A stretch of 42,712 bases of DNA, taken from the sequence record PQ850615.1, one strand, 5' to 3'. Position numbers and translations under genes: made by a program. The notes under the pieces are model-generated. The model saw nothing but the letters and a program-made list of their open reading frames with translations. It did not search any database and had not been told where the DNA came from. Source of the stretch: Escherichia phage LotteLoewe_Bas71. The stretch's first letter is position 1; every line of letters begins with the position of its first letter. This document shows, one piece after another, positions 16,981-35,104 of the stretch.

Positions 16981-18380
16981 TGAGCGACTTATATTTCCCA
17001 CGTAGCCTTAAGCCGGTGGTATCGAAAGGCTACTCAATGACCAGACGCAACAACGTCTGGAGTGTAGATTTAGCCGGTGGCGGAGTGCGTCAAGGCCGTG
17101 ACACGTATTATGATGTGTTCCCGATAAGCGTAACTCTGATTACATCTGCACTAGGGCGACAGGCGTTCCTGTCGTTCCTTGAGAAAGTGGACGGCGGCGC
17201 GTCAAGTTTCTGGATGGCGCATGACTTCGGCATGGGTATTGAAGATTATCAGGTAACCATCACGTCCACCATCGCGGAGTCCACCGAAGACGGCATTAAC
17301 TGGACGATTACTTTCACGGCAACCGCCGAGAAATCCCCGTTCCAGGACCAAGAGAACCAGTGCCTGATTAACAATCTTCCAGATTTGTACGGTTGTTACG
17401 GGGATTGTCTGGGTAGTTTCCTGAAAATATACGCGAACTACGAGACGACGTTCCCTCGCATCTGGAGCAATGAAGGGCCTGCAGGATACCCGCCGATTAA
17501 CATGCTGGCATCTACGCTTGATAGCCGCATTGTTTACGATGGGCCACAGGTTTACTACATCAACCGCAACGGCAATCTTGTGCAGTCCGCCGCTAATGAA
17601 TGGCCTCTTACGTTTATTGATGGGGTTGCTGTCGGGCGTGTGCCGCCGGAAAAGGCGGCTATCAACGTGGTAGAACACTCTAACAACTTACTATCTACAT
17701 CATTTTCACGCACCAGAACAAAAACAACGGCGAGTTCTTTGACGTTATTCCAAGAAACTTACGCCGCTAAATTAACCGCAACGTCGGTATCAGGGAACCA
17801 TCATATAAACCAGGCAGAGTCCCCAGAACAAGAAACAAGATACTCTATTAGTGCTATTATAAAAGCAGATGAGTACCAGTCATCCGCGGTAGTCATCGGC
17901 AACCGAAACGCTTTAGATAATTTCCAGTATGCCTATGTTGACTTAGCCTCTGGCTATTTGATATCAGGCGACACCTCAAGGTCGTTCGTAAGCAATCTTG
18001 GTGGTGGGTGGTATCACGTTTCAATGTCCGCGGACACTAACGACTCCGGCGGATTGATTTATTCGCAGATAAACATGTTGTCGCCGTCTAACTCCCTCAC
18101 CTTCACAGGGGATGATGTCAGCGGGTTCAATGTGGCTCTAATTCAATTGGAGGCATCGCCATTTGCCACATCGCCAATAGTAACCGATGCGTCACCGGTA
18201 ACCAGACACACGGCATCGGCAAAAGTAGCAATGAACGGCGCGACAAGCATCGACATTACCTATTCCGACGGCTCTGTGGTAAACGTTCTGGCGGCAGATG
18301 ATTACGCAACCATCCCGCAGGCTGATTCCGCGTGGGGTAGCAAGTACATCACTCGTATTGATTTTAATGTGGACGGTTAA
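16980..18380 (+). CDS. minor tail / distal tail protein
   Basis: 466 aa ORF immediately after tape measure (ATGA overlap). Confidence 0.45.
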   Translation: MSDLYFPRSLKPVVSKGYSMTRRNNVWSVDLAGGGVRQGRDTYYDVFPISVTLITSALGRQAFLSFLEKVDGGASSFWMAHDFGMGIEDYQVTITSTIAESTEDGINWTITFTATAEKSPFQDQENQCLINNLPDLYGCYGDCLGSFLKIYANYETTFPRIWSNEGPAGYPPINMLASTLDSRIVYDGPQVYYINRNGNLVQSAANEWPLTFIDGVAVGRVPPEKAAINVVEHSNNLLSTSFSRTRTKTTASSLTLFQETYAAKLTATSVSGNHHINQAESPEQETRYSISAIIKADEYQSSAVVIGNRNALDNFQYAYVDLASGYLISGDTSRSFVSNLGGGWYHVSMSADTNDSGGLIYSQINMLSPSNSLTFTGDDVSGFNVALIQLEASPFATSPIVTDASPVTRHTASAKVAMNGATSIDITYSDGSVVNVLAADDYATIPQADSAWGSKYITRIDFNVDG

Positions 18381-18383
18381 TTT

Positions 18384-18899
18384 ATGAGCCAGGAATCTGT
18401 AGAAGCCGCCTATCGCCGTAAGCTGGCCTCAAATCCCGACGGCGAGATGGACTACATCACGTTGCAAATCAGCCACCCGTTGTTGTCAAAGACGTACTAT
18501 CTTGTTCGTGGGCTACAGGAACTCACGGCAACACTGGAGACAGGCGAAATTATCACGTTCGAGCCAACCCCGATGGAGGCGTCGGGGGCGGCTAACAACA
18601 GTGATATGGACCAGACGACTACGTTTACTTTACCGGATATTCTCAATCAACTTGACGATGAGATGGATAAAATCCCTATGAGTAACACCGAGTTGCCGAA
18701 GTTCGTCTTCCGTCGTTACGTCAGCACAGACCTGTCTTATCCGGCTGACGGTCCTGTCATGTATGAGTTGCAGGCCATCAACCAGGAGAAGGGCGAGTTC
18801 TCCGCGGATGTTGGTACACCTATGCTGAACCAGCGAAGCACTGGTATACTGATGACACCTAAAGAGATACCGTTATTACGCGGCCTGTTGACCACATGA
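18384..18899 (+). CDS. minor tail protein
   Basis: 171 aa ORF in the tail-tip gene block. Confidence 0.4.
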   Translation: MSQESVEAAYRRKLASNPDGEMDYITLQISHPLLSKTYYLVRGLQELTATLETGEIITFEPTPMEASGAANNSDMDQTTTFTLPDILNQLDDEMDKIPMSNTELPKFVFRRYVSTDLSYPADGPVMYELQAINQEKGEFSADVGTPMLNQRSTGILMTPKEIPLLRGLLTT

Positions 18900-19261
18900 A
18901 TATTAACGACTACACGGGCATACCTTACGACTTTCGCAAGCGCAATTGCTGGCATCACGTTCGCATTGTACGGGCCGATGCCGGGTTAGAAACCCCGGCG
19001 TTCGACGTTGCAAGCCCAACGGCGATTAACGAAGCGTTCGACGAAGGACATCGCAACACGAAGGGACTTACAAAAATTGATAAGCCTGAAAACTTCTGTG
19101 CGGTGCTTATGGGGTATCGCCGCGGCGGTCGTATCGTGTGGCACGCAGGAGTTTACTTCGACGGGATGGTGAGCCATTGCGAGCTTGCTTCCCGTCAGGT
19201 ACGGCTTGACAGGCTGGCGGATCTCAGAGACACGTACACGGAGATTGAATTTTGGCGATAA
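18896..19261 (+). CDS. tail assembly protein, NlpC/P60-like (lambda K-like)
   Basis: Conserved Cys/His (NCWHHV ... WHAGVY) and position between minor tail and tip protein genes. Confidence 0.45.
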   Translation: MNINDYTGIPYDFRKRNCWHHVRIVRADAGLETPAFDVASPTAINEAFDEGHRNTKGLTKIDKPENFCAVLMGYRRGGRIVWHAGVYFDGMVSHCELASRQVRLDRLADLRDTYTEIEFWR

Positions 19262-21819: not shown

Positions 21820-21831
21820 AGAGGACTCTAT

Positions 21832-23763
21832 ATGTCAAGCGGATGCGGTGACGTTTTAAGCCTGGCGGATTTACAGACCGCCAAGAAGCACCAGATTTTT
21901 GAAGCCGAGGTTATCACAGGTAAATCCGGCGGAGTATCTACGGGTGCTGATATCGATTACGCGACAAATCAGGTTACAGGGCAGACTCAGAAGACGCTCC
22001 CGGCCGTGTTGCGTGACGCCGGGTTCAGACCTGCGCCATTCACATTCGAAACAGGTGGGACTTTGGGCGTTAACGACGCTGACCTGGCGGTGTTGTGGCC
22101 AGGGCCATCAGGCGACGGCAACTATTATGCATGGAAAGGTGCCCTGCCAAAAACCATCCCGGCATCTTCAACCCCGGCGTCTACGGGCGGAGTAGGCCAG
22201 ACCGCATGGGTTGCCGTTAGTGAAGCTGCATTGCGCCGTGATTTGGCCCTAAGCACTGGCGCAGGGCTAGTTGGTACGTCTTCGGGTCGCACAGTGCAAG
22301 GCGAGGTTGACCATTTCAAAATAGGGTATATGACACCCGATGATTTCGGCGCGGTGGGTGATGGTGCCACCGACGACACCACGCCTTTGCAACAGGCTAT
22401 TGACTATTGTTCAAGCAACGGTATCGCGTTAAGAATCCCCGCAAAATCTTATGTTTGGAATGGCGGTATTATAACTTCACCCATAACAATAATCGGTGAC
22501 AGACGTCCAGATTACAATTTTAGCTCCAATTCTATGTCTAACGGGTCTGTCATAATTGGCAATTTAAGATTTTCCGCAAGCCAGGTGATTATTAAGTCAC
22601 TTGGTGTGCGTAGGCCTACAGGCTCCCCCGGAGATTGTCTGGTGTTATCGACCGATAACTATGCTGGTGGGTCTTGTATTGTTCAAGATGTAGTTGCCGC
22701 GGGCCTTTCCGGTTCGGACACGTACCACAGCGTTCTTGTTGAAGGCTACGATTCCGCGCATGTATCTCAAATAACTGGCGGTTATAATCTTTTTGGCCTC
22801 GCGATTAAGTCAAGAAACGTTGTTGCCAGAGGCGTAATAACCGTAAGCTGTGATACTGGCGTTATCATTAAATCTGATAGTGAGTTCAGCACGGCAAAAA
22901 ATGTGGTGCTGGACGGGCACATTAATGTCGGTAATGGTGTTTCTAGTCAAGGTGTTTGGATTTACAGCACAACCGCACAACTTGAGCGTATTACCTGCGC
23001 AAACTTACAAAGCATCGATTCCGCTATACATATGCGGATTAAGTCCGAAAACGTAGCTAATGACGTGCAAATTGTTGGGGCAAATTATTCAGGATCTACT
23101 TATGCGGATGTTTTAGTCGAAGGCACTTCGGCGGGCACATTGTACAATGTTAGTTTAGATAGTATAACAGCAGTAGATAGCCAGAAATTTATGGCTGCAG
23201 GTTTCTGTGAACAACTGATGGTAACAGGATTCTATGGGTCCCTGAAACCTGGCGCTCCCGCCGATACTGCGTTTGAGGTTAGCGCCGCCGTAGGGCTTTT
23301 TAGCGGGTCAAATATCCAACTAGTCCGTCAACACGGCAGTGACCTAATGACAATGAATCTCGGTAACAGTTATCTTAATAATAGATTATCATCTGTTAAG
23401 GCGAAAGTAATAGGAGACGGCAAACCTAGACCGGGGTATAAAGAACAGAATCTTAGCGGCGCTGCGGCTTCAATGATTGTCGGCGACAGTTTGGGTCCCT
23501 CTGGGGTTGTGTCTGTCACCGCGTTATCCACCGGCAGTTCATTCAGCAGTATTTCTATTAATGACGACTATGGTCAGCCGGTTAAGCCAGGTTTTCTTCT
23601 AATAATCCGAAACGCATCCCCTATCCCGTTCGTTATGAACCATAATCCAGGGTCTGGTGGAATCGCAAATAACGGGGCGGTGGGTAAGACCATTGCGGGC
23701 GGAGACACTATAATGTACGTTTTTGACGGGGCGAATTGGCGTCAGACTCCATCAGTAACATAA
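21832..23763 (+). CDS. tailspike / receptor-binding protein with pectate-lyase-like beta-helix (putative polysaccharide depolymerase)
   Basis: Motif DFGAVGDGATDDTTPLQQAIDYC typical of the pectate lyase 3 fold; last gene of the tail operon, followed by a terminator. Confidence 0.6.
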   Translation: MSSGCGDVLSLADLQTAKKHQIFEAEVITGKSGGVSTGADIDYATNQVTGQTQKTLPAVLRDAGFRPAPFTFETGGTLGVNDADLAVLWPGPSGDGNYYAWKGALPKTIPASSTPASTGGVGQTAWVAVSEAALRRDLALSTGAGLVGTSSGRTVQGEVDHFKIGYMTPDDFGAVGDGATDDTTPLQQAIDYCSSNGIALRIPAKSYVWNGGIITSPITIIGDRRPDYNFSSNSMSNGSVIIGNLRFSASQVIIKSLGVRRPTGSPGDCLVLSTDNYAGGSCIVQDVVAAGLSGSDTYHSVLVEGYDSAHVSQITGGYNLFGLAIKSRNVVARGVITVSCDTGVIIKSDSEFSTAKNVVLDGHINVGNGVSSQGVWIYSTTAQLERITCANLQSIDSAIHMRIKSENVANDVQIVGANYSGSTYADVLVEGTSAGTLYNVSLDSITAVDSQKFMAAGFCEQLMVTGFYGSLKPGAPADTAFEVSAAVGLFSGSNIQLVRQHGSDLMTMNLGNSYLNNRLSSVKAKVIGDGKPRPGYKEQNLSGAAASMIVGDSLGPSGVVSVTALSTGSSFSSISINDDYGQPVKPGFLLIIRNASPIPFVMNHNPGSGGIANNGAVGKTIAGGDTIMYVFDGANWRQTPSVT

Positions 23764-23792: not shown

Positions 23793-23929
23793 TACTCTTC
23801 CGATAACTTCTCCAGCACAAACGCCAGTTGCGCATTAGCGGCATCTCTCTGTTGCCGTAGGCGTAGAACCTCCTCTTCGAGTTCCTTGATACGTTTTTGC
23901 AATGCTGGAATCGGGGCTATGATGTTCAT
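23792..23929 (-). CDS. hypothetical 45-aa coiled-coil protein
   Basis: Small ORF ATGA-coupled to the upstream gene; terminal gene of the leftward arm before terminator 23768..23792. Confidence 0.3.
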   Translation of the reverse strand: MNIIAPIPALQKRIKELEEEVLRLRQQRDAANAQLAFVLEKLSEE

Positions 23930-24111
23930 TTCTCACCTTCGCTTTTCTTGAAGCTGCGCTTTATGTCCGGCAGCGTGTAACATCGTGACTTTTCATATTT
24001 ACCGTTCGAGCTTACTAAAACAAAGCTGTTGCCGTCTTTTGATATGTACTCGATGGTGAAAGTATTGAATGAGCGTATGCTGTATATTTCATCACCAACA
24101 TTAAGTTTCAT
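23926..24111 (-). CDS. hypothetical 61-aa protein
   Basis: ORF coupled (ATGA) to the SNF2 helicase gene. Confidence 0.4.
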   Translation of the reverse strand: MKLNVGDEIYSIRSFNTFTIEYISKDGNSFVLVSSNGKYEKSRCYTLPDIKRSFKKSEGEK

Positions 24112-25532
24112 TTCTTACCTCGTCTCTTCATGTAATTAAGCAACTCTTCCTGTACCGATTTTTTCTCGTCCGTACGCGTGGCAACAACCTCGTCCAGCGT
24201 GTCTTTAGCGACGATATGATAGAGGAACACCGGGCGCTCGTGTCCCGCCTGTTTCTGGCGGACCGGGCCTATGCGCTCAACAACCTGTAAATAGTGCTCA
24301 AGGTTCCACCCTTGCGAAATAAACGCCAGATGATGTCCGCCGTCCTGTAAATTCAAACCATGACCAGCTGACGCAGGATGCACGCATAAGATCTCAATTT
24401 CACCACGGTTCCACGCTTCCATCTGCTTATTCCCCTTAGCGCCTTTGGCAAACGCCTGCGCCTGCGGGAAACGTTTCAGGATGCGCTCCAGTTCGTGCTT
24501 GAACTGATAGGCCACCAGTAACGGTGCCCCCTGTAACTCCTCAACAATGGACTCGAGCGCATCAAGTTTCGTGTCGTGCACTTTCTCCCATTCTTTGGTT
24601 GCTTCGCCGTCTTCGCCCGTCACATACACGGCACCGGAAGCAATCTGCAAGCACTTAGCCGTTTTAGCGGCAGCGTTGGCAGCCTGCACCTCCCCACTCT
24701 CCAGTTCCGCGATTAACTTTTTCTCCATATCGATGTACGCCTGACGCGCTTTCTTCGGCAGGTCGATTTCAACCGGCACGATAACAGGCGCTTCACAACC
24801 GAACCACTCAGCAGGGTCGATAGTCAGGCTGATGTCTTTCATCTTCTGATGAATCTCATTATCCGCACCCGGTCGTGCATGATACTCGCGGGCCATAGCC
24901 GATTTACCTTTCTGTACCGAGTTAAACCAGCGGTCGGTGAATGCTGTGTACGAAGAGCCGAGGCGCTCGCCAGCGTCGATAAACCAGTTCTGACCCCACA
25001 AGTCTTTGAGGCCGTTTGGTGACGGTGTGCCTGTCAGGTTGATGAAACGCTTAACCTTTCCGAACGCAACCTTGCTGAGCGCCTTTGCCCGCTTGCTACC
25101 ACCCGAACGGCTGCGGAACGATTTAAGCTTCGTGCTTTCATCGGCAACGATAACCGTAAAAGGCCAGTCGTCTTTGCCGTAGTAGTCAATTAGCCACTCG
25201 ATAACTTCGTAGTTAGTGCACACCACGTTAGCATCTGACTCCAGCGCTGCGATGCGGCGCTTCTCCGAACCAGTTGCATCTACGACACGCAGACAAGGGA
25301 ATTGCCATTTCTCTTGTTCAGCGGGCCACGTACCGGACGCAACACGTAACGGGGCAAGGATTAACACGCGGTCCTCTTCCGTAAGCTGCCCGTTGCGGAA
25401 CAGGCGGTTGAGCACCCACATAGTGGAGGAGGTTTTACCTCCCCCCATTCCGCACCAGATATTACAGCGCGGGTGTTGCAGCATGAACGAAGTCATGAGC
25501 TTCTGGTACTCACGCCTTTGAAACTTACTCAT
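24108..25532 (-). CDS. SNF2-family ATP-dependent helicase
   Basis: Walker A GMGGGKT, DExx box (IVADESTKLKS), C-terminal helicase domain. Confidence 0.7.
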   Translation of the reverse strand: MSKFQRREYQKLMTSFMLQHPRCNIWCGMGGGKTSSTMWVLNRLFRNGQLTEEDRVLILAPLRVASGTWPAEQEKWQFPCLRVVDATGSEKRRIAALESDANVVCTNYEVIEWLIDYYGKDDWPFTVIVADESTKLKSFRSRSGGSKRAKALSKVAFGKVKRFINLTGTPSPNGLKDLWGQNWFIDAGERLGSSYTAFTDRWFNSVQKGKSAMAREYHARPGADNEIHQKMKDISLTIDPAEWFGCEAPVIVPVEIDLPKKARQAYIDMEKKLIAELESGEVQAANAAAKTAKCLQIASGAVYVTGEDGEATKEWEKVHDTKLDALESIVEELQGAPLLVAYQFKHELERILKRFPQAQAFAKGAKGNKQMEAWNRGEIEILCVHPASAGHGLNLQDGGHHLAFISQGWNLEHYLQVVERIGPVRQKQAGHERPVFLYHIVAKDTLDEVVATRTDEKKSVQEELLNYMKRRGKK

Positions 25533-26322
25533 TTACTGCCCCCATGAACGCCTTTATAAATTCAGCGGCTACTTGCGGGACGATGGCATTGCCATAACCG
25601 CGCAATCGTCCCACTCTTGCGGATACCCCATGAGTTGCCTCGCAAAATCCGCCTGGTATGACTCTAGTTTCCTTATCTGCTCCATGGTTGGGTTTCCATG
25701 AATCCCATAAACATGAAGCCACATCTGGCGATAAAGAGTATCGTTCCTGAATTTTCCGTCCTTTCTGTAAAATGTCTTGCTGAGATCCCCGTAATCCTTC
25801 CATCCTCGCGCCGTTGGTGTCGCCCATCCTCGCGCCAAAGATGATTCTTTTCCTTTCCTGTGGAGAGCCGACGCTGCAAGCTGGCAATACTGACGCCCCG
25901 CAGGCGTAGCCTTTGTCTTCCAGGTTAAGGAATACAAAATCGAGCCAGTGCTTCCCAATTGCTGCTGCAACCTGCTCTCCAAACAGCAATTCAGGCTTGC
26001 ACTCTCTGATGAGCCTGAGAAATGCTGGGGCAAGGTGTCGATCGTCGTCAAATCCGAGAGACTTACCGGCAACGCTAAACGGCTGGCAAGGTGGTGATCC
26101 TGTCCAGAGTCGAGTGCTTTCTGGTATTCCTGCCAGCTGGAGTGCAAGGGGCCACCCTCCGATTCCGGCAAAGAAGTGACACTGTGTAAATCCTTCCAGG
26201 TCTGAAGGGGTGACTTCGGTGATTGATCGTTCATCGACATATCCGTAAGGAATTAGTTTATTGTTAATTAATTCACGCAGCCACGCGGCTGCGCCTTTAT
26301 CCCATTCGTTGTAATAGTTCAT
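25525..26322 (-). CDS. DNA (cytosine-5) methyltransferase
   Basis: C5-MTase motifs I (FFAGIGGW), IV (SPPCQPFS), VI-like (LFGEQV), VIII (QERKRIIFGAR). Confidence 0.6.
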   Translation of the reverse strand: MNYYNEWDKGAAAWLRELINNKLIPYGYVDERSITEVTPSDLEGFTQCHFFAGIGGWPLALQLAGIPESTRLWTGSPPCQPFSVAGKSLGFDDDRHLAPAFLRLIRECKPELLFGEQVAAAIGKHWLDFVFLNLEDKGYACGASVLPACSVGSPQERKRIIFGARMGDTNGARMEGLRGSQQDILQKGRKIQERYSLSPDVASCLWDSWKPNHGADKETRVIPGGFCEATHGVSARVGRLRGYGNAIVPQVAAEFIKAFMGAVNE

Positions 26323-26510
26323 TTCGCCACCAGAACTAACTCTTTACGCCCGAACGCCGTAACGTTACCGGTTACGTCTTCAATAACCAGTTTACCGTTC
26401 GACTCGACGAACACCGTATCAACGGCAACAGGACGACGGGTCTTAACGTTGAAAATCATGTCGCCGGGTACGATGTCACGTGCTGGTTTGCGGTCATATT
26501 CGTGTTTCAT
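26319..26510 (-). CDS. hypothetical 63-aa protein
   Basis: ORF with AAGGAA SD, immediately downstream of promoter 26545..26573. Confidence 0.4.
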   Translation of the reverse strand: MKHEYDRKPARDIVPGDMIFNVKTRRPVAVDTVFVESNGKLVIEDVTGNVTAFGRKELVLVAK

Positions 26511-26826
26511 TTCTAAATTCCTTATATTGTTGGGGTATGTGCTTACTATAATAGTCTGCTATTAGGGTGTCAATCTGTTTTATCGAACCAACGACAAAAA
26601 CATTTGCGCCACGTTTACGTATACGCTCGTGTTCCCGTAGCTGGTGCGGGTCTGGCTTAGTGTTTTCGTCTTTCTTCACCTCGACGAACCAGACGATGCC
26701 GCCGGGTAGAATTGCCAGCAGGTCAGGAGCGCCTGAACGTCCTTCGTAGGAAAGTTTACGAACGAGGCCACCAATGGCCTCGAATCGCTCTTTTGCGTAT
26801 TTCTGGATGCGGCCCTCTTTAGTCAT
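26494..26826 (-). CDS. VRR-NUC domain nuclease
   Basis: PD-(D/E)XK-like core (GAPDLLAIL ... VWFVEVKKDEN) typical of VRR-NUC. Confidence 0.55.
   Translation of the reverse strand: MTKEGRIQKYAKERFEAIGGLVRKLSYEGRSGAPDLLAILPGGIVWFVEVKKDENTKPDPHQLREHERIRKRGANVFVVGSIKQIDTLIADYYSKHIPQQYKEFRNETRI
26545..26573 (-). promoter_or_regulatory. leftward class B promoter (TTGACA-N17-TATAGT)
   Basis: Minus strand TTGACA (26568..26573) - N17 - TATAGT (26545..26550); lies inside the 3' end of the VRR-NUC ORF. Confidence 0.5.
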
Positions 26827-26975
26827 GACCGCAGCATCCAGGTAAGGAAAACCCAGCCTAGAATGGCAACACCGGCAAACTGAAAGAACAGGCCGTAACA
26901 GAACATAGCAGCTATTCCCGCACCGAGTAACAGTGCGAGCATGGTTACTATGGTCCTAAATACAAACTTTGTCAT
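26823..26975 (-). CDS. small hydrophobic membrane protein (50 aa)
   Basis: GAGGGG SD; single predicted TM segment; below ORF-track cutoff. Confidence 0.3.
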   Translation of the reverse strand: MTKFVFRTIVTMLALLLGAGIAAMFCYGLFFQFAGVAILGWVFLTWMLRS

Positions 26976-27057
26976 AATACACACCCCTCACGTTTCGTAT
27001 GCTCAATCCCGCAGCGCGGACAGATTCGGCAGTCTTCTTCGTATAACCAGTAAATTT

Positions 27058-27189
27058 TCATTCCAGCACCCACAAATAAATTGCTACTAGCATACCCAAT
27101 ATGGCAACCATCATGCCGTATTGTCCCTCGTGACAGTAGACACCGGCGGCAAATCCCGCCAGTACCGCGATAATCAGTTTACTTGGCAT
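27058..27189 (-). CDS. small hydrophobic membrane protein (43 aa)
   Basis: Two hydrophobic segments; start overlaps DNA polymerase 3' end. Confidence 0.3.
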   Translation of the reverse strand: MPSKLIIAVLAGFAAGVYCHEGQYGMMVAILGMLVAIYLWVLE

Positions 27190-29359
27190 AACGCTTCATC
27201 TCCGCACCTTCCGCTACAAGAGGGAACCCCTCCGCCCACTCCGGTAATTCGCACATCAACCGCTCAAGCTCTGCAACATTGTATTCTGGCGTATCTGGTG
27301 TTTCGCAGATAATTTCGTCGTGTACGTGAAGCACAATAGGATAGCCGTTTGCTTCAACGTTCAGCAGTGCATTGGCCAGCAAATCACGGCACAGCGCCTG
27401 AGTACAGTTTTCCACGAGTTTACCAGAGTAGGTGTACTGGAAGCCCCACTGACGGGTTAACTGGTTCTCCCCCTGGTACTTGATGCGTACGTTAGTAGAC
27501 ACTTTTCCATCTTCGTCTGTTTCTTTCGACACGCTTAACCCGACGCCCGGATAAGACATAACGCGACCCGACGGCAACGTCATGCGCAACCACCAGCCGG
27601 CGACTTTGTTGCCGTTGTTGTCTGTCTCTACGTTGCGCGAAAACTTAACCCCCCTAGGCCCCGCGGTGAACTCTTTACCTGGATTGCGGATAGCGGCCAT
27701 AGCTGCGTCTTCAATATCTCGCCAGAAAGCTACTGTTTCAGGGTGTGACTCTCGCCACATACGCTTGATAGCGTCACAGGTACGCCACACTTTCTTATCA
27801 AGAATATACGATGGTCGGTCATCCTTCTCCCCGGGTCGCGGCGGTCGCTTGGCTTCCTGAATACGTGCCCATTCATAGCCGCGTGCAGTAGCCGCCCAGA
27901 TGTGGTCCGGGAAAGTACCGTCCATTGTTTTTGACATATCAACAAGGTCAAGTCCGAGGTTCTTAGCAAACTGAACGAAAGCGCCAACACCACCAGCGTA
28001 GCCGAGGCCAAGCTCGCAGGCTTTACCAATCTGGCGCAAGTCTTTGCGTTCCTTCTTAATGTAATCCGGCTCCATGCCGAACATCTTACCCGCGGTTACA
28101 CAGTAAATGTCCAGCCCGGCGCGGAACGTATCTAGCGCGGTTTCTTCGCCTGCCAGCCACGCAAGCCCCCGACCTTCAACGTTAGAGTAATCGGCGACGA
28201 CAAACTTTTTTCCAGCTTCCGGGATAATGCAGCTACGCACCGTCGATGCCGTTAGCTTAGCGACATCGAAACGGCGATGCGCGCGGCCCTTAAGTAACGC
28301 TGAAATACCTTTATCCAGTTCATCATCGTGATAGTACCCGCGCGCGAGGTTCTGCGGCTGAAATCCTTTACCGGCAAATCGTAATGTACGCTTGGCTCCG
28401 CCGTACTGAATGCAACCACGACGGCGGTCGTCCGACGAGCGCCCTAACAGCAGCGGGTTATATTTCGTTGACGCTGTGGACGCGGCCCCGAGGCGCATTT
28501 CGATAATCGTGCGTGCGTCGTCCGGTAAATCATCATCCGCCAACAGGTCGTTAAGCGTAGACTTCTGCGCGTTGTGGATGCGGTGCGCTGGTGCAAGTTC
28601 ACGCAGAATCGGCAGGAAGTCTTTACCAGTAAGCGAGCCGCCGTATTTGCGCTGTGCTTCTTCCTGTAGCTGGGCCTTGTGTTTTTCCACGGCTTCAATC
28701 GCGGCTTCCGCCAGCGTCACATCAACCTTAAACCCACGGTCGTTAATCAACTGGTCCAGTTCCAGTACACGGTCTTCGAACTCGGAGTTACCCCAACGCG
28801 GCAGCTTATGGAAGACTTCACGCATCGCAGTGATGTCGCTCACGGCGTACCTGATGAACATCGCCCACTCGTCAGGGTGAGTTTCTGCGGTGTAGCGGCG
28901 GATTTTGTAGTTCTTCGGCGTCGGTTTAGAGAAACGCTTAATCAGAGCCTTGCCGCGTTTATCTTTCGCGTTGTCTGCAGACACGCCCAGCACTTCGCAC
29001 AGCGCATCAAGTGAACCCGGCAGCGCGTGACGAAACGCCCAAATCATCGTATCAATGGTGTTGCTTACGGGAATATCAAAGCCCCAGCAGTGTTTCATGA
29101 TGAGCCTGTCGAACATTGAGCCGTTGTGCCACACCATCTTAATACGACTGTTCGGCTTAACCAGGCGGCGCAGTGCGCGGTGCAAATCACCCGGCATGTC
29201 GCTGCCGTCGGTGCAATCCCATACCCGCACAGGCTCGTCGTCAAAAGCATATGTGCAGATAAGCACTTCGGTAGTCGGGTGTTCGGCGTAAGCGTAGGAG
29301 CCGACTTTCTTTAAATCGGCTTCGGAGAATGTTTCAAAGTCCAGGTATAAGTAGCTCAT
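27179..29359 (-). CDS. DNA polymerase, family A, with 3'-5' exonuclease domain
   Basis: Exo motif (YLYLDFETFS), pol motif A (DYSNVEGRGLAWLAGE), motif B (RQIGKACELGLGYAGG), motif C (LHVHDEI); start refined to ATG 29359 with AAGGA SD. Confidence 0.85.
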   Translation of the reverse strand: MSYLYLDFETFSEADLKKVGSYAYAEHPTTEVLICTYAFDDEPVRVWDCTDGSDMPGDLHRALRRLVKPNSRIKMVWHNGSMFDRLIMKHCWGFDIPVSNTIDTMIWAFRHALPGSLDALCEVLGVSADNAKDKRGKALIKRFSKPTPKNYKIRRYTAETHPDEWAMFIRYAVSDITAMREVFHKLPRWGNSEFEDRVLELDQLINDRGFKVDVTLAEAAIEAVEKHKAQLQEEAQRKYGGSLTGKDFLPILRELAPAHRIHNAQKSTLNDLLADDDLPDDARTIIEMRLGAASTASTKYNPLLLGRSSDDRRRGCIQYGGAKRTLRFAGKGFQPQNLARGYYHDDELDKGISALLKGRAHRRFDVAKLTASTVRSCIIPEAGKKFVVADYSNVEGRGLAWLAGEETALDTFRAGLDIYCVTAGKMFGMEPDYIKKERKDLRQIGKACELGLGYAGGVGAFVQFAKNLGLDLVDMSKTMDGTFPDHIWAATARGYEWARIQEAKRPPRPGEKDDRPSYILDKKVWRTCDAIKRMWRESHPETVAFWRDIEDAAMAAIRNPGKEFTAGPRGVKFSRNVETDNNGNKVAGWWLRMTLPSGRVMSYPGVGLSVSKETDEDGKVSTNVRIKYQGENQLTRQWGFQYTYSGKLVENCTQALCRDLLANALLNVEANGYPIVLHVHDEIICETPDTPEYNVAELERLMCELPEWAEGFPLVAEGAEMKRYAK

Positions 29360-29511
29360 TTCTTTTTCCTTAAATCCAGTGCCTTCGTTTCGCTGAGTCT
29401 TATTTTCATACAATCACGGCAAATCCACACATGCCTGTACCCGGCGCGGTACTCATCCGCGTACCACGGAAGCGGTTTCATATATCGGTATACGTGCTTA
29501 CAGAAAAACAT
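29356..29511 (-). CDS. hypothetical 51-aa Cys/His-containing protein
   Basis: Small ORF whose stop overlaps the polymerase ATG (ATGA); C-x3-H ... C-x2-C pattern. Confidence 0.3.
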   Translation of the reverse strand: MFFCKHVYRYMKPLPWYADEYRAGYRHVWICRDCMKIRLSETKALDLRKKK

Positions 29512-29526
29512 GATTTTCGACCCTTA

Positions 29527-29551
29527 GTAAAAAGGCCCAATGAAGGGCCTT
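29527..29551 (-). terminator. intrinsic terminator after SSB-like gene
   Basis: On the minus strand AAGGCCC-TTCATT-GGGCCTT followed by TTTTTAC. Confidence 0.5.
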
Positions 29552-29570
29552 AGTTAAATTGATTCAGATA

Positions 29571-30197
29571 TTAACGGCGGCGACGTTCGCGGCGCGGTGC
29601 TTCATCTTCTTCGTCGTCTTCCAGGTCATTGACGCTCGCAGCGACTTTAGAACCGCCGAACGCTTTGCCTTCGCCAACGTATTTAATCGCCAGCAGGTTA
29701 ACGCCGAGGACTTTGTATTTCTGGCTGAACCAGATTTCAACGCTTACGTTAGCTAAGCATCCGCTGTAAACCTGTTCACCTTCAATCTGTTCACCGTCTA
29801 CATTGAAGTCCTGTTCTACCTGAGTCTCACCTTTTTTAGAGGTTACAATCAGCGGCTGCTTCTGTGCCTTCGCTTTGAAGTAGAAGCCTTCCGGGAAGTC
29901 TTCAAACGGATTGTCGCGCTCGGCGATGTCCTTAATCGCGCATTTATCCATGTGCTTGCCTTCGCCGTAGTTTGACTTCATCCATTTCTCTGCGGCGGCT
30001 GCACCCAACGCTTCTTCAACCACAGCGTAAACGGTGTCGTAGAGCGCGTCGATTTGCGCGTGGTCGGACGGCAGGATAATAGTCGCGCTGTACTGACCTT
30101 TAGTGATTGAACCATCATCATTTTCACGGTCTTTTTCGCGTTCGAATACGTTAACCCAGGCAGTGTTTACTTTACGCAGATTTAATTTCAGTCCCAT
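29571..30197 (-). CDS. ssDNA-binding protein (T7 gp2.5-like)
   Basis: Acidic C-terminal tail (DLEDDEEDE), AFGGSK motif and overall pattern reminiscent of gp2.5-type SSB; own promoter and terminator. Confidence 0.45.
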   Translation of the reverse strand: MGLKLNLRKVNTAWVNVFEREKDRENDDGSITKGQYSATIILPSDHAQIDALYDTVYAVVEEALGAAAAEKWMKSNYGEGKHMDKCAIKDIAERDNPFEDFPEGFYFKAKAQKQPLIVTSKKGETQVEQDFNVDGEQIEGEQVYSGCLANVSVEIWFSQKYKVLGVNLLAIKYVGEGKAFGGSKVAASVNDLEDDEEDEAPRRERRRR

Positions 30198-30255
30198 TTG
30201 ATTTCTCGCTTTTCAGTTTCAGTTTACTCCGGGATCTGCCCGGCCAGTGATTAGA

Positions 30256-30284
30256 ACTATAATAGCTAACTATTCATGTGTCAA
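30256..30284 (-). promoter_or_regulatory. leftward class B promoter (TTGACA-N17-TATAGT) for SSB-like gene
   Basis: Minus strand TTGACA (30279..30284) - N17 - TATAGT (30256..30261); core AATAGCTAACTATTCA. Confidence 0.55.
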
Positions 30285-30503
30285 ATAAAATTTTGCAATA
30301 GGGATTATGTTCTCGAAATTAAGCATATTGGCCGGTTCGAACTCATCCTCTACAGGGTCGTATCGCATCATGGTACCGTTCAAGAACGTGAACGATTCCG
30401 AGTGTAGATACCCATCCCAGCGCCATACCATCAAAAAATCTTTATCAGTCGGCATTTCATTTACTTGAATCATTCTAAATCCTCCTCTGTAACTTGATTC
30501 CAC
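30270..30503 (-). CDS. hypothetical 77-aa protein
   Basis: ORF in the replication arm; 3' end overlaps promoter 30256..30284. Confidence 0.4.
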   Translation of the reverse strand: MESSYRGGFRMIQVNEMPTDKDFLMVWRWDGYLHSESFTFLNGTMMRYDPVEDEFEPANMLNFENIIPIAKFYLTHE

Positions 30504-31711
30504 TCAGGACGTTTGTCATCCGCCGTTGCGACGCATGGCGCACCGGGCTTACGGGTAATGAAGTCTTTCAGTTCTTCTTCCGGTACAATTTTAACCGCTT
30601 CGGTCGGTGTCATAAGAACTACCTTTTGCAGCATAGTACCGTACTTCTCGAATACTGCGTCGGTATCTTTCCACGCACGATTACCGGGGCGACCTTCAAC
30701 CAGTTTGTATCCTGGCACTTTCTTACCTGAATGCAAAGCAGCAGCCATCGCTTTCTCAACCTTGTCAATGTGCTGGCGCAACAAAGGCAACTTCTCATAT
30801 TCAGCTACGAGTTGCTCCGGCGTAAGTTCCAGCGCAAAGTCGTCCTCCAGTTCTTCGGCAAGTACAGAATTAACAGTCTTTGTACGCGCTGCGCACTGTT
30901 CAGAGAACCGACACCACTGACAACCGTCGACAGACGGCTTAAAGTCCGACGCTTTCAGGTTCTTCTTGCCTCGGAAATACGCATCAAGGGCTAACAGTGC
31001 GCGTTTCTGTGCGAACTTAGCGAACAGTTCCAGACCTTCAACCGAGATGTCCCACTCCGACGCGCCCCCGGCGTACGGCTGGAAGATTACCAGGCGCACT
31101 ACTGAGATGTTATAACGTCTCTTGAGTCGGCGGTAAACACCGAGAGCGTAGAGCATAAGCTGCTTGTTTTCTTTCGCTTCGACATGATGCCGTCCTGTTT
31201 TCAGGTCGCCGATAATGAGCATATGCTCGTCAGTGTTCGCCAGTTCCTGAACGGCAACGAGGTCGGCGGTTCCGAATGTCTCTACGCCTTCATATCCCGG
31301 ATGCAGAACCTCAGTAAGATTTACGCGCATCTCCAGCTTCGCGTAAGTCGCCACGTCGATAATCGCTTTGCAGTAATCGGTGTACTTTGTACACTGGTCA
31401 ATCATGTCCGCCGTAATCAGTACCGCGCCTTTCATCGGACTGATTAGCGCCTTAATCGGGCCTTTACCTTCGTCCAGTACGTACGCGCCTACTTCACGTG
31501 CTAGCGGCAACGCAGTGCCTTTGATGTACTGATTCAGGTGAATCTCAGATATCGTGTGCATAGCCGTGCCTAATACAGCGGCTTTGCCTGACGTGTTCGG
31601 GATGTCTTTTTCACATGCCAGCGACGCACTGCACGCCAACCATTTCTTAGCACCTGACGGTGACAGTAAGGCGTGTACATCGTTATTGCCCCCGCGTTCT
31701 TTCAAAATCAT
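30470..31711 (-). CDS. PD-(D/E)XK nuclease, Cas4/RecB-like exonuclease
   Basis: RecB nuclease motifs (GTADLVAV, IGDLKTG, EAKENKQLMLYA) and C-terminal Cys cluster (CQWCRFSEQC); start refined to ATG 31711 with GGGAGG SD. Confidence 0.6.
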   Translation of the reverse strand: MILKERGGNNDVHALLSPSGAKKWLACSASLACEKDIPNTSGKAAVLGTAMHTISEIHLNQYIKGTALPLAREVGAYVLDEGKGPIKALISPMKGAVLITADMIDQCTKYTDYCKAIIDVATYAKLEMRVNLTEVLHPGYEGVETFGTADLVAVQELANTDEHMLIIGDLKTGRHHVEAKENKQLMLYALGVYRRLKRRYNISVVRLVIFQPYAGGASEWDISVEGLELFAKFAQKRALLALDAYFRGKKNLKASDFKPSVDGCQWCRFSEQCAARTKTVNSVLAEELEDDFALELTPEQLVAEYEKLPLLRQHIDKVEKAMAAALHSGKKVPGYKLVEGRPGNRAWKDTDAVFEKYGTMLQKVVLMTPTEAVKIVPEEELKDFITRKPGAPCVATADDKRPEWNQVTEEDLE

Positions 31712-31980
31712 ACCCTGACCTCCCACTGGTCAATTAAATGCCGAGTTTTGTGCTGGCAATGCATCGCCCAGCTATACATAGACTCGAAGACATAAAAGTC
31801 ACTTTTAACGAAAGTCGTACGCTTAATCTGCGACAGGTGACGGCCTATATCTTTAGGCCGTGGTACTTTTCCTAAGTACGCCATCTCTTCCATCTGGTGC
31901 GCGCCGGACGGCGCACGCAACAGCCACAACGCCTCTGTGTTATCCCGTCGGTCAATACCTCGGTAGAGTTGGTAAATCAT
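31708..31980 (-). CDS. hypothetical 90-aa protein
   Basis: ORF ATGA-coupled to the nuclease gene. Confidence 0.4.
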   Translation of the reverse strand: MIYQLYRGIDRRDNTEALWLLRAPSGAHQMEEMAYLGKVPRPKDIGRHLSQIKRTTFVKSDFYVFESMYSWAMHCQHKTRHLIDQWEVRV

Positions 31981-32023
31981 ATTACGACCCTCTGTTAAAG
32001 CGGCCCGGAGGCCGCCAGATAAA

Positions 32024-32524
32024 TTATTCTTCTTCGAAATACTTGTTCTTAATCGCCGTCAGGCGTTTCAGGTATTCAGCTAGGTCTTCGTCTTTAATCG
32101 CGGCAATCTTCATTTTCTTACCGGTGAACTCCTCCAGCAGTTCATCGGAATCGTCGCACGCAGCATCGCTAGGACCTTCGTTAATTGCATCGTCGATAGC
32201 CTGAATCTGGTCACGAAGAGACTGGTAATCGACCTCTTCTTTCTCTTCTTCTGGTTCTGGAGTCGGCTCCTCTACTTTAGCTTTACGCGGCTTGCGTTTC
32301 GGCTTCTCTTCTTCTGCTGGTTTAGCGTCAACGATGTCTTCACCTTCAACAGGGATTTCTTTTGTTGCTTCTTTTTCGCACTCAGCTACCGCTTCTTTGG
32401 TATACACTACCGTCTCTACTTCTAACGGCGCTGCAACTTGTGCTGACTGCTTCGCACTGTTCGCAGCAATCAGTTCATGTGCAACTACGAAACGTTCCAG
32501 TAATTTTAAGAATTGTTCTAACAT
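32024..32524 (-). CDS. highly acidic early protein (candidate DNA mimic / anti-restriction)
   Basis: 166 aa, very D/E-rich with one basic patch (KPKRKPRKAK); first gene after tandem leftward promoters; conserved leader CGAGAGGAGAGA. Confidence 0.5.
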   Translation of the reverse strand: MLEQFLKLLERFVVAHELIAANSAKQSAQVAAPLEVETVVYTKEAVAECEKEATKEIPVEGEDIVDAKPAEEEKPKRKPRKAKVEEPTPEPEEEKEEVDYQSLRDQIQAIDDAINEGPSDAACDDSDELLEEFTGKKMKIAAIKDEDLAEYLKRLTAIKNKYFEEE

Positions 32525-32555
32525 TTGTTTCTCTCCTCTCGTTTGGTATGGGCTA

Positions 32556-32584
32556 ACTATAATAGCGAACTATTCACATGTCAA
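32556..32584 (-). promoter_or_regulatory. leftward class B promoter (TTGACA-N17-TATAGT) for acidic early gene
   Basis: Minus strand TTGACA (32579..32584) - N17 - TATAGT (32556..32561); core AATAGCGAACTATTCA. Confidence 0.6.
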
Positions 32585-32599
32585 TGGGCTTTTCTAAAA

Positions 32600-32628
32600 T
32601 AATTAATATGGTACTATTCACATATCAA
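32600..32628 (-). promoter_or_regulatory. second, weaker tandem leftward promoter / operator half-site
   Basis: Minus strand TTGATA (32623..32628) - N17 - TAATTA; contains half-site GTACTATTCACAT. Confidence 0.35.
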
Positions 32629-32648
32629 CTGACTAAGGAGTAATTGAC

Positions 32649-32864
32649 ATGCAACCATCTGAACTAGGCATCCGTGTAGAACAACGCCGCAAAGAACTCG
32701 GCATCTCCCAGCGCCGTTTGGCGGCCCTGACCGGCGTTTCCCAGGGCGCGATTAACCAACTGGCACTTGGAGTAACTCAGGACGTCCGCCCGGCAACGCT
32801 GTTCAAACTGGCGGAAGTTCTGGAAGTAGACGCCAAGTGGCTGGCGTTAGGTGAAGGGGCTTAA
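32649..32864 (+). CDS. XRE-family helix-turn-helix transcriptional regulator (Cro/CI-like)
   Basis: HTH signature (ISQRRLAALTGVSQGAINQLALG); AAGGAG SD; own terminator; oriented against the surrounding leftward genes. Confidence 0.7.
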   Translation: MQPSELGIRVEQRRKELGISQRRLAALTGVSQGAINQLALGVTQDVRPATLFKLAEVLEVDAKWLALGEGA

Positions 32865-32879
32865 AGCCCCTTTCTTTTT
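32856..32879 (+). terminator. intrinsic terminator after XRE HTH gene
   Basis: GGGGC-TTAAA-GCCCC hairpin followed by TTTCTTTTT; stop codon lies within the hairpin. Confidence 0.6.
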
Positions 32880-32881
32880 AC

Positions 32882-35104
32882 CTATTCCAAATCCTCCTCT
32901 GTCACCACCAGCATCTCATTTGGTTCGTATAGTGTCTTCGGCCTTAATCTATCCCCTATTCTTTCGGGTATACGATATGTTCTCGGTACTACTTCGCCGT
33001 TAGCATCGCAACCAAGCATTAGTTCTCCATCTTTCAACATTTTATCAAGATGGGTGTTAGTCACAGAGAAGTCACCGGAACGAGCCACTATCTGCTGCTG
33101 AGTAAAACCGCGACCTGTGTCATCTGACTGTTGCAGGTCTTCCAGTGCCGAAAGTATTGACTCCTTCCTTACTTCATCCCTGCCGCGTTTAACTTCTTCC
33201 TTTACTTTTTGCTTACCTTCTTTCGTCAACCCTTCTTCCCGCTCTTTCTCCTCGTCAGTTTTGAACGGCTCGAAACCCCACGGCATCAACACAAGCGCCT
33301 TGTGTGGTTCAGGAAGGTCCAGGTTTACGATTGTGCCGTATTCTTCTGTGCCCCCCAGGAACTCAACCGCACGGTACTCTTTCGGCGGAGGAGCTTCGCG
33401 GAACTGCACAGACTCCAGCACCATGCCAACCGTTTTCTGTTGAGGACCGTGCTTAAATTTCGAGTGGTATACGTTTATTTGACGGTCGGTTGCACGTTCG
33501 ATTGTCAGTTCCACGTCAACACCCGCATACAGCGCCCCACTGCCGCGTGCTTTCTTTCCACCCTTCGGCGTATGGTGGACAACGCCTACTGCGGCTTTAG
33601 TTGCATCGCGTACTTCTTTCAGAATGGCGATAACTTTACCCATGCCGATTGCTGTTGATGAACTGTTCTCGTCGAACTTATCAATCGTCAGTGCCAGGGT
33701 CTGGTTAAGGGTGTCGAACGCAACCATGCCAATTGGCTCGTCGCCAGCAGTTTCGCGCATTAACTTAATCAGGCTTTTAAGTTTGCCGACTTCGCCCATA
33801 TCGATGACGTGTACATAATCTTTACCTTCCCCGCCATATTTAGCCGCTAGTGCATCAATACGGGTGCGTGTAGCTGCGCCACCCTCACCATCAATATAGA
33901 AATGGTGGCAACGCTGGGTATCCGCCCCCGCAAACCTGTACCCGGCGGCGCTGAGGTACATCATCCCCAGCGTATAGAACGATTTGTACGTGCCAGATTC
34001 CCCGACGATATCCCAGATACAATCCGACGGCATGTACCCCTCAACGACGAAATCAGCCTTTACCGGCTCCGGTAACTCGTCCTCCTCTGAGTCCTCGTCG
34101 TCTTCCAGGTCGTCGAGGCTGCAAGTTACTGGGTCCTCGTTCTCTGTGCGGTGTAGTTCTTCAATCTCTTCTTCCGGTAAATCAGGCAGAGCCGCACGAA
34201 TGCTGTTAATGCTGATAGGTTGCTTATCTATGTTAAGCTCGTCGGGTAGGCCACACATACGCAGGGCCAAATGCTGCCTACGGTTAAGCTCGGTGCAAGC
34301 GCCGTTGTTTGTATGCTGGCAGACAAAGCGCACTTCTTTACCGTCGAGCATTATGCTGGTGGAGCCCTTGCCTGTATGCAGATGTTCGTTAGGGCATGGC
34401 ACTTCGTACCCGCGCCCGGAAGATAAAGCGTCAAGGCCAAGCTCGGCTTCGCAGAAGTGTGCTATATCCGCGTTAAGCCCATGCTCATCAGCGGCAAGTG
34501 TTTTAGCCTCACGCTTACGCAACCCCATCTCTTCGGCTTTCTTGATGTACCGCTCAGCACGGATAACACGCCCTTCTGTAACCGTTATCTTCGACTCTTT
34601 ATGCGGCAGGTAGATAAGGCGGTTGCCGTCTTCTGTGCAGTGGTCGCGCAACGCTTCGTCTATTTCTAACTCTGCACAAATAGCACGTTGCACCATCCAC
34701 GCGTCGTTAGAGTTAAACGGCGTGCGAGCTGGAACCAGAACGCGGAAAGCGTAATCTCCGTTTTTACACACATGCTGATGCGATGCCGTTGTATGCAGAA
34801 TATTGAAGAACGGTGCGTTCTTGAATTTGCGGGTAAGGTCGCGGTACTGAGTACGGTTGAGATGGTCGAAATCGAACTTAACCACACTGTCTTCCAGGAT
34901 AGCGTTTTTACGGCGACCACCAACAGGCGCAATAGCTTTCTGTTTAATCTTGGCAGCGTCGTACTCTTCCTTAGTCCATGACGGGTCCACGGATAAACGC
35001 TTCGATGTATCGCAGACATACTCCACAAACTGCTCGAGCGGCATCTCACGCGCTACAGGGTTTTTATCGAATGTGTTACGCAGCGTTGCAAAAACAATAT
35101 TCAT
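32882..35104 (-). CDS. DNA primase-helicase (primase N-terminal region + RecA/DnaB-like ATPase)
   Basis: 740 aa; Walker A-like GESGTYKS; C-terminal helicase motifs (VVHHTPKGG ... GSGALYAGVD); N-terminal Cys/His cluster (CPNEHLHTG ... FVCQH). Confidence 0.65.
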   Translation of the reverse strand: MNIVFATLRNTFDKNPVAREMPLEQFVEYVCDTSKRLSVDPSWTKEEYDAAKIKQKAIAPVGGRRKNAILEDSVVKFDFDHLNRTQYRDLTRKFKNAPFFNILHTTASHQHVCKNGDYAFRVLVPARTPFNSNDAWMVQRAICAELEIDEALRDHCTEDGNRLIYLPHKESKITVTEGRVIRAERYIKKAEEMGLRKREAKTLAADEHGLNADIAHFCEAELGLDALSSGRGYEVPCPNEHLHTGKGSTSIMLDGKEVRFVCQHTNNGACTELNRRQHLALRMCGLPDELNIDKQPISINSIRAALPDLPEEEIEELHRTENEDPVTCSLDDLEDDEDSEEDELPEPVKADFVVEGYMPSDCIWDIVGESGTYKSFYTLGMMYLSAAGYRFAGADTQRCHHFYIDGEGGAATRTRIDALAAKYGGEGKDYVHVIDMGEVGKLKSLIKLMRETAGDEPIGMVAFDTLNQTLALTIDKFDENSSSTAIGMGKVIAILKEVRDATKAAVGVVHHTPKGGKKARGSGALYAGVDVELTIERATDRQINVYHSKFKHGPQQKTVGMVLESVQFREAPPPKEYRAVEFLGGTEEYGTIVNLDLPEPHKALVLMPWGFEPFKTDEEKEREEGLTKEGKQKVKEEVKRGRDEVRKESILSALEDLQQSDDTGRGFTQQQIVARSGDFSVTNTHLDKMLKDGELMLGCDANGEVVPRTYRIPERIGDRLRPKTLYEPNEMLVVTEEDLE

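Follow-up and report, generated by a model that had tools for sequence, protein, structure and literature searches.

A reading frame nested in an orphan C5-cytosine methyltransferase gene of Escherichia phage LotteLoewe_Bas71 and its probable part in a two-polypeptide enzyme

Among characterized C5-cytosine methyltransferases, M.AquI and M.EcoHK31I are the only two-polypeptide exceptions named in the literature consulted (PMC3404938). M.AquI is a natural two-polypeptide enzyme whose subunits must assemble (PMC3404938), while in M.EcoHK31I (Escherichia coli; YGGCCR) the β chain is encoded wholly inside the α gene in another frame, carries motif IX and is required for activity (PMC2836561; PMC3404938). 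Activity depends on both chains; part of the β N-terminus can be dispensed with, and initiation occurs at internal starts (PMC2836561). Here we analyse a C5-cytosine methyltransferase gene (25525–26322, minus strand) in Escherichia phage LotteLoewe_Bas71 (hereafter Bas71; sequence record PQ850615.1), a small siphovirus genome of 42.7 kb that was taken as a whole (i.e. a window of 42,712 nucleotides). A second conserved open reading frame (ORF) lies nested within this gene. We suggest that the locus is an accessory, orphan and dual-coding methyltransferase cassette in a Kagunavirus genome, and that its two products most likely assemble as one active enzyme.

The large methyltransferase polypeptide (frame A or α; 265 amino acids) matches the Pfam family PF00145 (E = 1.2e-21, above the curated cut-off) and the PHROGs family phrog_363 (5.7e-75). 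It contains motif I FAGIGG (26152–26178), motif IV PPCQPFS, motif VI GEQV (ENV-equivalent) and motif VIII QERKR; Cys79 of PCQ, E116 and R157/R159 are invariant in 65 homologues of A. An earlier note on this DNA had proposed a short C5-methyltransferase here, to be doubted if its catalytic Cys were missing. The enzyme family is borne out and the Cys is present and invariant, while the cause of the shortness, i.e. a second conserved ORF nested inside, had been missed. Alignment of A with the M.HhaI family by hhalign (98% probability, E = 9e-15) covers motifs I–VIII only, with PCQ aligned, and the PF00145 match covers only positions 59–165 of 324, with no profile match extending past 165. Neither Pfam nor hhalign finds a motif IX in frame A, or a recognizable, canonical target-recognition domain (TRD) between motifs VIII and X. 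Where motif IX and the TRD are expected, residues 166–210 of A form an unconstrained linker that is variable in length and rich in Gly, Arg and Glu. A family-invariant motif X (GYGNAIVPQ) was seen by inspection at the C-terminus, and neither Pfam nor hhalign aligned it.

The N-terminal part of A is also unusual in its order. The first 34 residues (26221–26322; the YYNEWD segment, YYNEWDKGAAAWLRELI...G.VD / YYNEWDKGAAAWLR...G.VD) align to M.HhaI 37–71 (hhalign probability 60%, E = 8.6e-5), and alignment of full-length A with M.HhaI leaves a 36-residue gap exactly at M.HhaI 33–68, between motifs I and IV, so that the canonical order I–II–III–IV is not followed. This suggests that α is locally permuted, with motifs II–III ahead of motif I. 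In a Rhodobacteraceae genome (L149, 3800–5150), PCP replaces PCQ in A, and motif IV is followed by a Cys-rich insertion (CPSCGAKSC...CLDCG).

The nested ORF (frame B or β; 25569–26240, minus strand) is in the +1 frame and has 223 amino acids from its first ATG, with a second ATG at 26234. It lies wholly within the A gene and takes up 223 of the 265 codons. PHROGs places A and B in separate families, that of B (phrog_1008) being labelled 'DNA methyltransferase'. The N-terminal ∼75 amino acids of B are unconstrained and predicted to be disordered, while the conserved part consists of a helix and hairpin (LYSLTWKTKATP), one GWATPTARGWKD module and a motif-IX-like ARQLMGYPQEWDDC. GWATPTAR... and QLMGYPQEWDDCAVMAMPSSR are among the segments unique to the B frame. 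The C-terminus of B has the form G.LNP..SRWLMGxPxEWDxC, and on the DNA this element stops immediately before motif X of A. The B stop in Bas71 is formed by the Val–Ala codons GTA GCC of this motif X, so its position depends on synonymous choice in A.

The central part of B is made up of zero to four tandem modules of ∼35 amino acids, (L)AGWxTPxAxD: one in Bas71 (25800–25835), two in coliphage N15 and four in Rhodobacter phage RcMaeve. The mean length of the B core increases from 134 amino acids with no copy of the module to 215 with four, and the linker of A lengthens in step. These repeats are reminiscent of multispecific Bacillus phage methyltransferases, which have target-recognising domains in tandem. 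When B is aligned with M.HhaI or with the M.HhaI family profile, the sole hhalign match is to motif IX (TRKLHPRECARVMGYPDSY; E = 0.065–0.11, probability <1%). A B profile gives only chance matches among PDB sequences, and Pfam scans find no motif IX or X in the C-terminal half of B, in the C-terminal piece of A or in hand-made A–B–A and B–A chimeras.

We then asked how widely the nesting occurs. Loci for this comparison were retrieved by similarity to A alone, i.e. with no ascertainment through B. In all 56 members with a near-full-length match, the +1 ORF spans at least 73% of the match (median 90%), and the median for the +2 frame is 19%. Among loci found through B, nesting is present in 77 of 80 viral loci and in at least 56 of 80 bacterial-genome loci, the latter from Proteobacteria, Spirochaetes, Bacteroidetes, Planctomycetes and others. 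Synonymous-codon shuffles of A from Bas71 give a longest +1 ORF of 74 codons on average compared with 227 codons observed, a length reached by none of 1000 shuffles; across the 26 loci that were tested, p ≤ 0.047 in every one. Stop codons tell a similar story for both frames. From motif VIII to the LMG element of B (i.e. over the A linker), A-frame stops are found in none of 54 loci against an expectation of 3.3 per locus, and from motif I to the conserved LTWK of B no B-frame stop is found in 52 of 54 loci. This indicates that both frames are kept open even where the other frame dominates.

Conservation differs along the gene. Residues 1–165 and 211–255 of A are conserved, while 166–210 are poorly so (majority-residue fraction 0.20–0.38). 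In B, the first ∼70 residues are poorly conserved; the fraction is 0.65–0.70 for ...LESRLQQQLGSTGSILYSLTWK, 0.59 for WATPTARGWKD and highest, at 0.83, for FARQLMGYPQEWDDC (LMGYPQEWDDC). A211–240 and the LMG region of B are both conserved on the same DNA. Substitution periodicity was analysed in 19 close pairs with genes that are 72–97% identical. In the upstream segment, 66% of the differences fall at A codon position 3; from motif VIII to LMG, 45% fall at A position 1 (i.e. B position 3) versus 26% at A position 3; and from LTWK to motif VIII, A position 2 (i.e. B position 1) carries 3% of the differences, as expected under double constraint. Codon usage gives a comparable picture. For the other Bas71 genes, the score in bits per codon is +0.59 (standard deviation (SD) 0.13) when read in frame and −0.56 (SD 0.12) when read in the +1 frame. 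Within the methyltransferase gene, the values are +0.19 for A and +0.21 for B, which places B 6.5 SD above normal +1 frames, and single-coding values resume outside the overlap. In brief, the tests show that, in hundreds of phages and prophages, both frames are open and conserved and, as judged from their substitution patterns, purifying selection acts on them in complementary segments.

B starts ∼20 codons upstream of motif I, where an in-frame ATG is present in 26 of 26 loci. This conserved ATG was given little weight as evidence for a start because it arises from conserved Asp–Glu or Asp–Val codons of A. A further candidate signal lies at 26145–26160 on the minus strand: GGAGG (26160–26156), which is made up of the motif I Gly–Gly codons GGA GGG, is followed after 8 nucleotides by a frame-B TTG (26147–26145). 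The arrangement of GGAGG with ATG or TTG recurs in nine of 26 loci. This TTG is a possible alternative β start, and catalytic motif I may thereby also provide the nested gene with a ribosome-binding site. Another recurrent TTG, with GGAG at +202, was judged to be a by-product of motif VI codons.

The B frame is found in phages of several hosts. A tblastn search matches 228 phage records, including phages of Xanthomonas, Vibrio, Rhodobacter, Burkholderia, Pseudomonas and a cyanobacterium, as well as N15, and similarity between B from E. coli and Xanthomonas phages reaches E = 1e-34. In Xanthomonas phage XAP3, K1G, Vibrio phage Marilyn, RcMaeve and N15, the B match is +1 out of frame with the annotated methyltransferase coding sequence. 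A four-sequence B profile found over 6,200 predicted proteins, and a Pfam methyltransferase domain is absent from all of the 120 listed. In some other phages, the B frame reads on without a stop into Dam (P0059; PF05869, 2.5e-53), MT-A70 (L056, 1501–2976; PF05063, 8e-25) or endonuclease VII (L006, 1489–2835; PF02945).

Nearly all genome annotations omit B, and a few annotators noticed the nested ORF: in the RefSeq record of K1G, both overlapping ORFs (ORF30/31) are annotated as 'DNA methyltransferase'. The database name 'Mte8-like protein' for B was traced to one phage-genomics paper, which gives no explanation of it. In Pseudomonas phage PMG1 (L085, 880–1900), the deposited A is frameshifted at its N-terminus and only B is annotated, as a hypothetical protein.

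Based on these results, we propose that (i) frame A would give a 265-amino-acid chain with a catalytic large domain (motifs I, IV, VI and VIII), an unconstrained linker and a C-terminal motif X piece; (ii) frame B would give a chain of ∼220 amino acids, the first third of which would be a tolerated by-product of A, while the rest would carry the parts absent from A, i.e. the helix–hairpin, one GWxTPTAxD module and the motif-IX-like LMGYPxEW just upstream of motif X of A; (iii) A and B would assemble into a heterodimeric orphan C5-methyltransferase, as in M.EcoHK31I, with β supplying motif IX and most of the small target-recognition domain; and (iv) this enzyme would methylate a specific cytosine-containing site on phage DNA and protect only against cognate restriction enzymes. 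Protection from restriction through such site-specific methylation is plausible.

Several points weigh against this proposal. B has no Pfam or NCBIfam family match, and its match to motif IX is short and not significant alone, and is suggestive only. AlphaFold2 predicts B from a 72-sequence alignment with low confidence (predicted local distance difference test score (pLDDT) 59, predicted template modelling score 0.26); in this model only the helix at 78–97 and the hairpin at 103–125 are predicted confidently, and Foldseek against the PDB returns nothing under E = 0.045, i.e. no structural neighbour. For A, 65 close homologues gave no usable AlphaFold2 model (pLDDT 36). The ATG starts of B in Bas71 have only weak Shine–Dalgarno sequences. 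The TRD of M.EcoHK31I is predicted in α, whereas conservation in the Bas71 family would put its equivalent (the VIII–IX region) in β. Moreover, sequence is our basis for inferring the translation of B, its complex with A, its role as motif IX/TRD and the biological target. Lastly, Kagunavirus isolates in the BASEL study, including the near-identical Escherichia phage VerenaMeyer_Bas76 (hereafter Bas76), were highly sensitive to the restriction–modification (RM) systems tested (PMC11990801), so any protection must be narrow and site-specific.

Some of these points would also fit a different view, which we consider unlikely, in which B is a genuine, selected, overprinted protein with a function unrelated to methyltransferase catalysis (e.g. 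a regulator, an anti-defence protein or a DNA-binding factor). Its lack of a significant methyltransferase-profile match, the uninformative structure prediction and the in-frame fusions to Dam, MT-A70 and endonuclease VII, which make varied partners possible, are all compatible with such a function. However, B is nested only in this methyltransferase family, in every member examined, and it supplies exactly the motif that is absent from A, at the position expected relative to motif X. Two of the three fusion partners are themselves DNA methyltransferases, and M.EcoHK31I provides a precedent (PMC2836561).

Much less probable still is a single chain produced through two programmed frameshifts, with A read to motif VIII, a +1 shift into B for the TRD and motif IX, and a −1 shift back to A for motif X. 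The conserved segments spliced in this way do give the canonical order I–VIII, TRD, IX and X, and the switch in substitution periodicity fits equally well. But B is open for ∼80 codons upstream of the point at which it would be required (52/54 loci), with an in-frame ATG there in 26/26, and A is open across the B-dominated linker (0 stops in 54 loci versus 3.3 expected per locus). In addition, conservation of A211–240 and of the LMG region of B falls on one and the same DNA, a conserved slippery site was not seen and the chimeric sequence scored no better against PF00145. Two separate chains that assemble into one enzyme remain our preferred explanation.

We also compared the setting of the methyltransferase gene in different phages. 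In Bas71, an SNF2-family helicase gene (24108–25532, minus strand; PF00176, 5.7e-13; phrog_62, 4e-167) overlaps the end of the methyltransferase gene by 8 nucleotides. On its other side lie, on the same strand, a 63-amino-acid ORF (26319–26510; phrog_4879) and then a gene for a VRR-NUC-type nuclease (26494–26826; phrog_93, 1.6e-32; phrog_5702, 3.6e-19), which is a Holliday junction resolvase in the annotation of relatives and has a weak VRR-NUC Pfam match (2.4e-3, under the curated cut-off). No partner restriction enzyme is found among these neighbours and the phage is lytic, which points to an orphan methyltransferase rather than one half of an RM pair.

A search with the SNF2–methyltransferase–VRR-NUC block matched 493 phage records, only 55 of which reach block coverage of at least 80%. 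Most of the 493 have SNF2 and VRR-NUC genes side by side without the methyltransferase, or an HNH/homing endonuclease in the slot; an empty slot is seen in many Escherichia and Salmonella relatives, whose helicase and VRR-NUC genes are neighbours within ∼1.9 kb. This variable slot (between the SNF2 and VRR-NUC genes of the 24108–26826 block) is also occupied by methyltransferase alleles with a B-frame identity of only ∼40%, in genomes that otherwise share ∼90% identity, which indicates cassette exchange. The β chains of Bas76 and of the Skatevirus-group phage Bas80 match that of Bas71 at 100% identity, compared with only ∼40% for K1G-type alleles. Elsewhere, the same cassette adjoins an integrase gene (Marilyn), lies between excisionase and terminase genes (RcMaeve), is near the genome end (N15) or beside a nucleoside deoxyribosyltransferase gene (XAP3), and is also met in a lysis-gene context. 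Its presence in unrelated contexts and its absence from most relatives suggest that the methyltransferase is a mobile accessory, while SNF2 and VRR-NUC belong to the replication/recombination module.

This does not support the view of the earlier note that SNF2, the methyltransferase and VRR-NUC make up a DNA modification trio. The three genes lie next to each other in the same orientation and their ends overlap, which would agree with cooperation in general anti-restriction protection. But the methyltransferase is missing from most relatives, which retain SNF2 and VRR-NUC, the cassette lives without these partners in other phages and Kagunaviruses are highly sensitive to RM systems (PMC11990801); a cooperating trio is thus highly improbable. 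The weakest alternative, with a negligible chance of being correct, is that B is a non-coding by-product of the composition or conservation of frame A: the first ∼75 residues of B are indeed poorly conserved and substitutions there follow the periodicity of A, but synonymous shuffles never recreate the ORF, from motif VIII to motif X conservation is higher in B than in A, periodicity switches to B, codon usage lies far above that of normal +1 frames and B homologues are recognizable between E. coli and Xanthomonas phages, and a compositional artefact is refuted by five tests, as far as sequence analysis can go.

The nested ORF would explain why widespread phage 'DNA cytosine methyltransferases' look truncated and lack motif IX. 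Constructs or annotations with the large ORF only, or 'silent' recoding, would probably give an inactive or altered enzyme, which is relevant to the synthetic-biology use of small Kagunavirus genomes. The locus also appears to be a clean and comparatively well-supported natural case of long same-strand dual coding with selection in both frames. We found no paper that describes nesting in phage methyltransferases, its spread or its selection, within an incomplete coverage of the literature. More tentatively, and with considerable doubt on our part, two-polypeptide C5-methyltransferases could form a very large family of phage and prophage orphans that spans phyla, all of them long same-strand dual-coding genes. 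In such a family, β might be an exchangeable specificity subunit with 0–4 GWxTPxAxD modules, possibly multispecific and sometimes fused to Dam or MT-A70, and α a locally permuted core (II–III before I). If this were true, these genes, which standard annotation overlooks, would rank with the longest and most broadly conserved overlapping gene pairs of prokaryotic viruses. Two-subunit C5-methyltransferases, which are treated as rare exceptions (PMC3404938), may then be common among phages.

The rest of the genome is much less unusual. The arm that includes the methyltransferase gene (23926–35104) is 96.9% identical to Bas76 over 99% of its length and 90–95% identical to many Kagunavirus (Guernseyvirinae) records, and 502 phage records match it. 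Gene order in the arm is the same as in the Bas76 annotation, and the sign of the GC skew flips near 23.8 kb and 35.5 kb, which is consistent with a leftward-transcribed arm. By sequence similarity and gene order, Bas71 is thus an ordinary Kagunavirus coliphage and the leftward arm is the usual replication/recombination module of the genus. The replication and tail modules are already known, and what the earlier note observed is the normal, unsurprising content of a well-sampled genus.

In the structural arm, PHROGs matches agree with the siphovirus tail order that had been proposed, i.e. chaperone, frameshift extension, tape measure, minor tail proteins, J-like protein and tailspike, all on the plus strand. 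The tail assembly chaperone and its −1 frameshift extension cover 13897–14675, with the chaperone at 13897–14313 and the extension to 14675. The chaperone ends in ...TCG GAA AAG TAA, with a slip site G GAA AAG at 14304–14310 just before the stop. A −1 slip at this site enters an open frame that leads without a stop into the ORF at 14403–14675, which matches the C-terminal positions 170–259 of a 259-position chaperone PHROG. The genes for the tape measure, the minor tail proteins, the J-like central fibre and the tailspike follow at 14653–23763, with the J-like protein at 19252–21819 and the tailspike at 21832–23763. Two minus-strand genes lie in the middle of this rightward arm, between tail genes and the tail chaperone: one for a 376-amino-acid SbcD/Mre11-like metallophosphoesterase exonuclease (12210–13340; phrog_704, 1e-162; weak Metallophos matches) and a 108-amino-acid ORF (13406–13732).

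The replication genes named in the earlier note were all found by Pfam and PHROGs on the minus strand of the leftward arm. They encode (i) a family-A DNA polymerase with a 3′–5′ exonuclease domain (27179–29350; 723 amino acids from the ATG used in Bas76); (ii) an Enc34/Gp2.5-like single-stranded DNA-binding protein (SSB; 29571–30197; PF10991, 3.9e-16; phrog_112 'Gp2.5-like', 7e-41) that also has weak matches to the Enc34 SSB structure; (iii) a DUF2800/PD-(D/E)XK (Cas4-like) exonuclease (30470–31711; 2.3e-67); and (iv) a replicative helicase of 740 amino acids (32882–35104; AAA_25, 3.7e-17, residues 345–516; phrog_3228), the N-terminal domain of which is annotated as primase in relatives. The sole plus-strand gene of the arm encodes an XRE-type helix–turn–helix regulator (32649–32864). 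Between the nuclease and helicase–primase genes, and adjoining the XRE gene, a minus-strand gene (32024–32524; phrog_3127) encodes a very acidic, Glu/Lys-rich protein of 166 amino acids with no Pfam match.

These genes had been likened to the replisome of phage T7 (gp5, gp4 and gp2.5), and the likeness holds for the parts list, i.e. a family-A polymerase, an SSB of the Gp2.5-like family and one large helicase–(primase) protein. By contrast, T7 gp5 is absent from the 60 best PDB matches of the polymerase, which include bacterial Pol I, its nearest relative, as well as Pol theta and plastid PREX. For the proposed fused primase–helicase, the helicase is confirmed as AAA_25 (RepA-like), the only domain detected by Pfam, which finds no TOPRIM, zinc-ribbon primase or DnaB_C domain. 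The primase half stands without such support: for residues 1–348, neither a Pfam family (even at E = 10) nor a solved structure in the PDB gives a match. The tail of T7 gp2.5 is acidic with an aromatic terminus and contacts the polymerase and helicase. The acidic tail proposed for the Bas71 SSB does contain an acidic stretch, DLEDDEEDE, in its C-terminus (29571–29630), but this is followed by a basic RRERRRR (tail ...DDEEDEAPRRERRRR, end DLEDDEEDEAPRRERRRR) rather than by a T7-like acidic and aromatic end. Furthermore, T7 lacks SNF2, VRR-NUC and DUF2800 partners, all three of which are present in the Bas71 arm. On these domain assignments, the resemblance to T7 is a loose analogy that reflects a common parts list, not family membership.

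The closest genomes are Kagunavirus K1G and the BASEL phages Bas70–76, with ∼97% identity to Bas76 over the arm and a shared gene order; K1G-type Kagunaviruses differ in their methyltransferase allele (∼40% identity in β) although the genomes are ∼90% identical. Among enzymes, the monomeric M.HhaI type has motifs I, IV, VI and VIII that align with those of A, and the catalytic Cys is present in A; A differs in having no in-frame motif IX or canonical TRD and in having its motif II–III segment N-terminal to motif I. M.AquI is similar in consisting of two polypeptides, but is split end to end in the variable region (α with motifs I–VIII, β with IX–X), so that it is not nested and motif X is on its small subunit. 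M.EcoHK31I is closest in layout, with a small chain nested wholly in the gene of the large chain in another frame, a likeness of published anatomy; its nested arrangement reportedly dates as a precedent from 1995, and its β is said to take up 176 of the 309 codons of α. In Bas71, motif X as well as motifs I–VIII are likewise found on the large chain, and the only M.HhaI-family match of B is to motif IX, at E = 0.065–0.11. Unlike in M.EcoHK31I, β in Bas71 is almost as long as α (223 of 265 codons), and the gene is an orphan phage gene that has no partner restriction enzyme.

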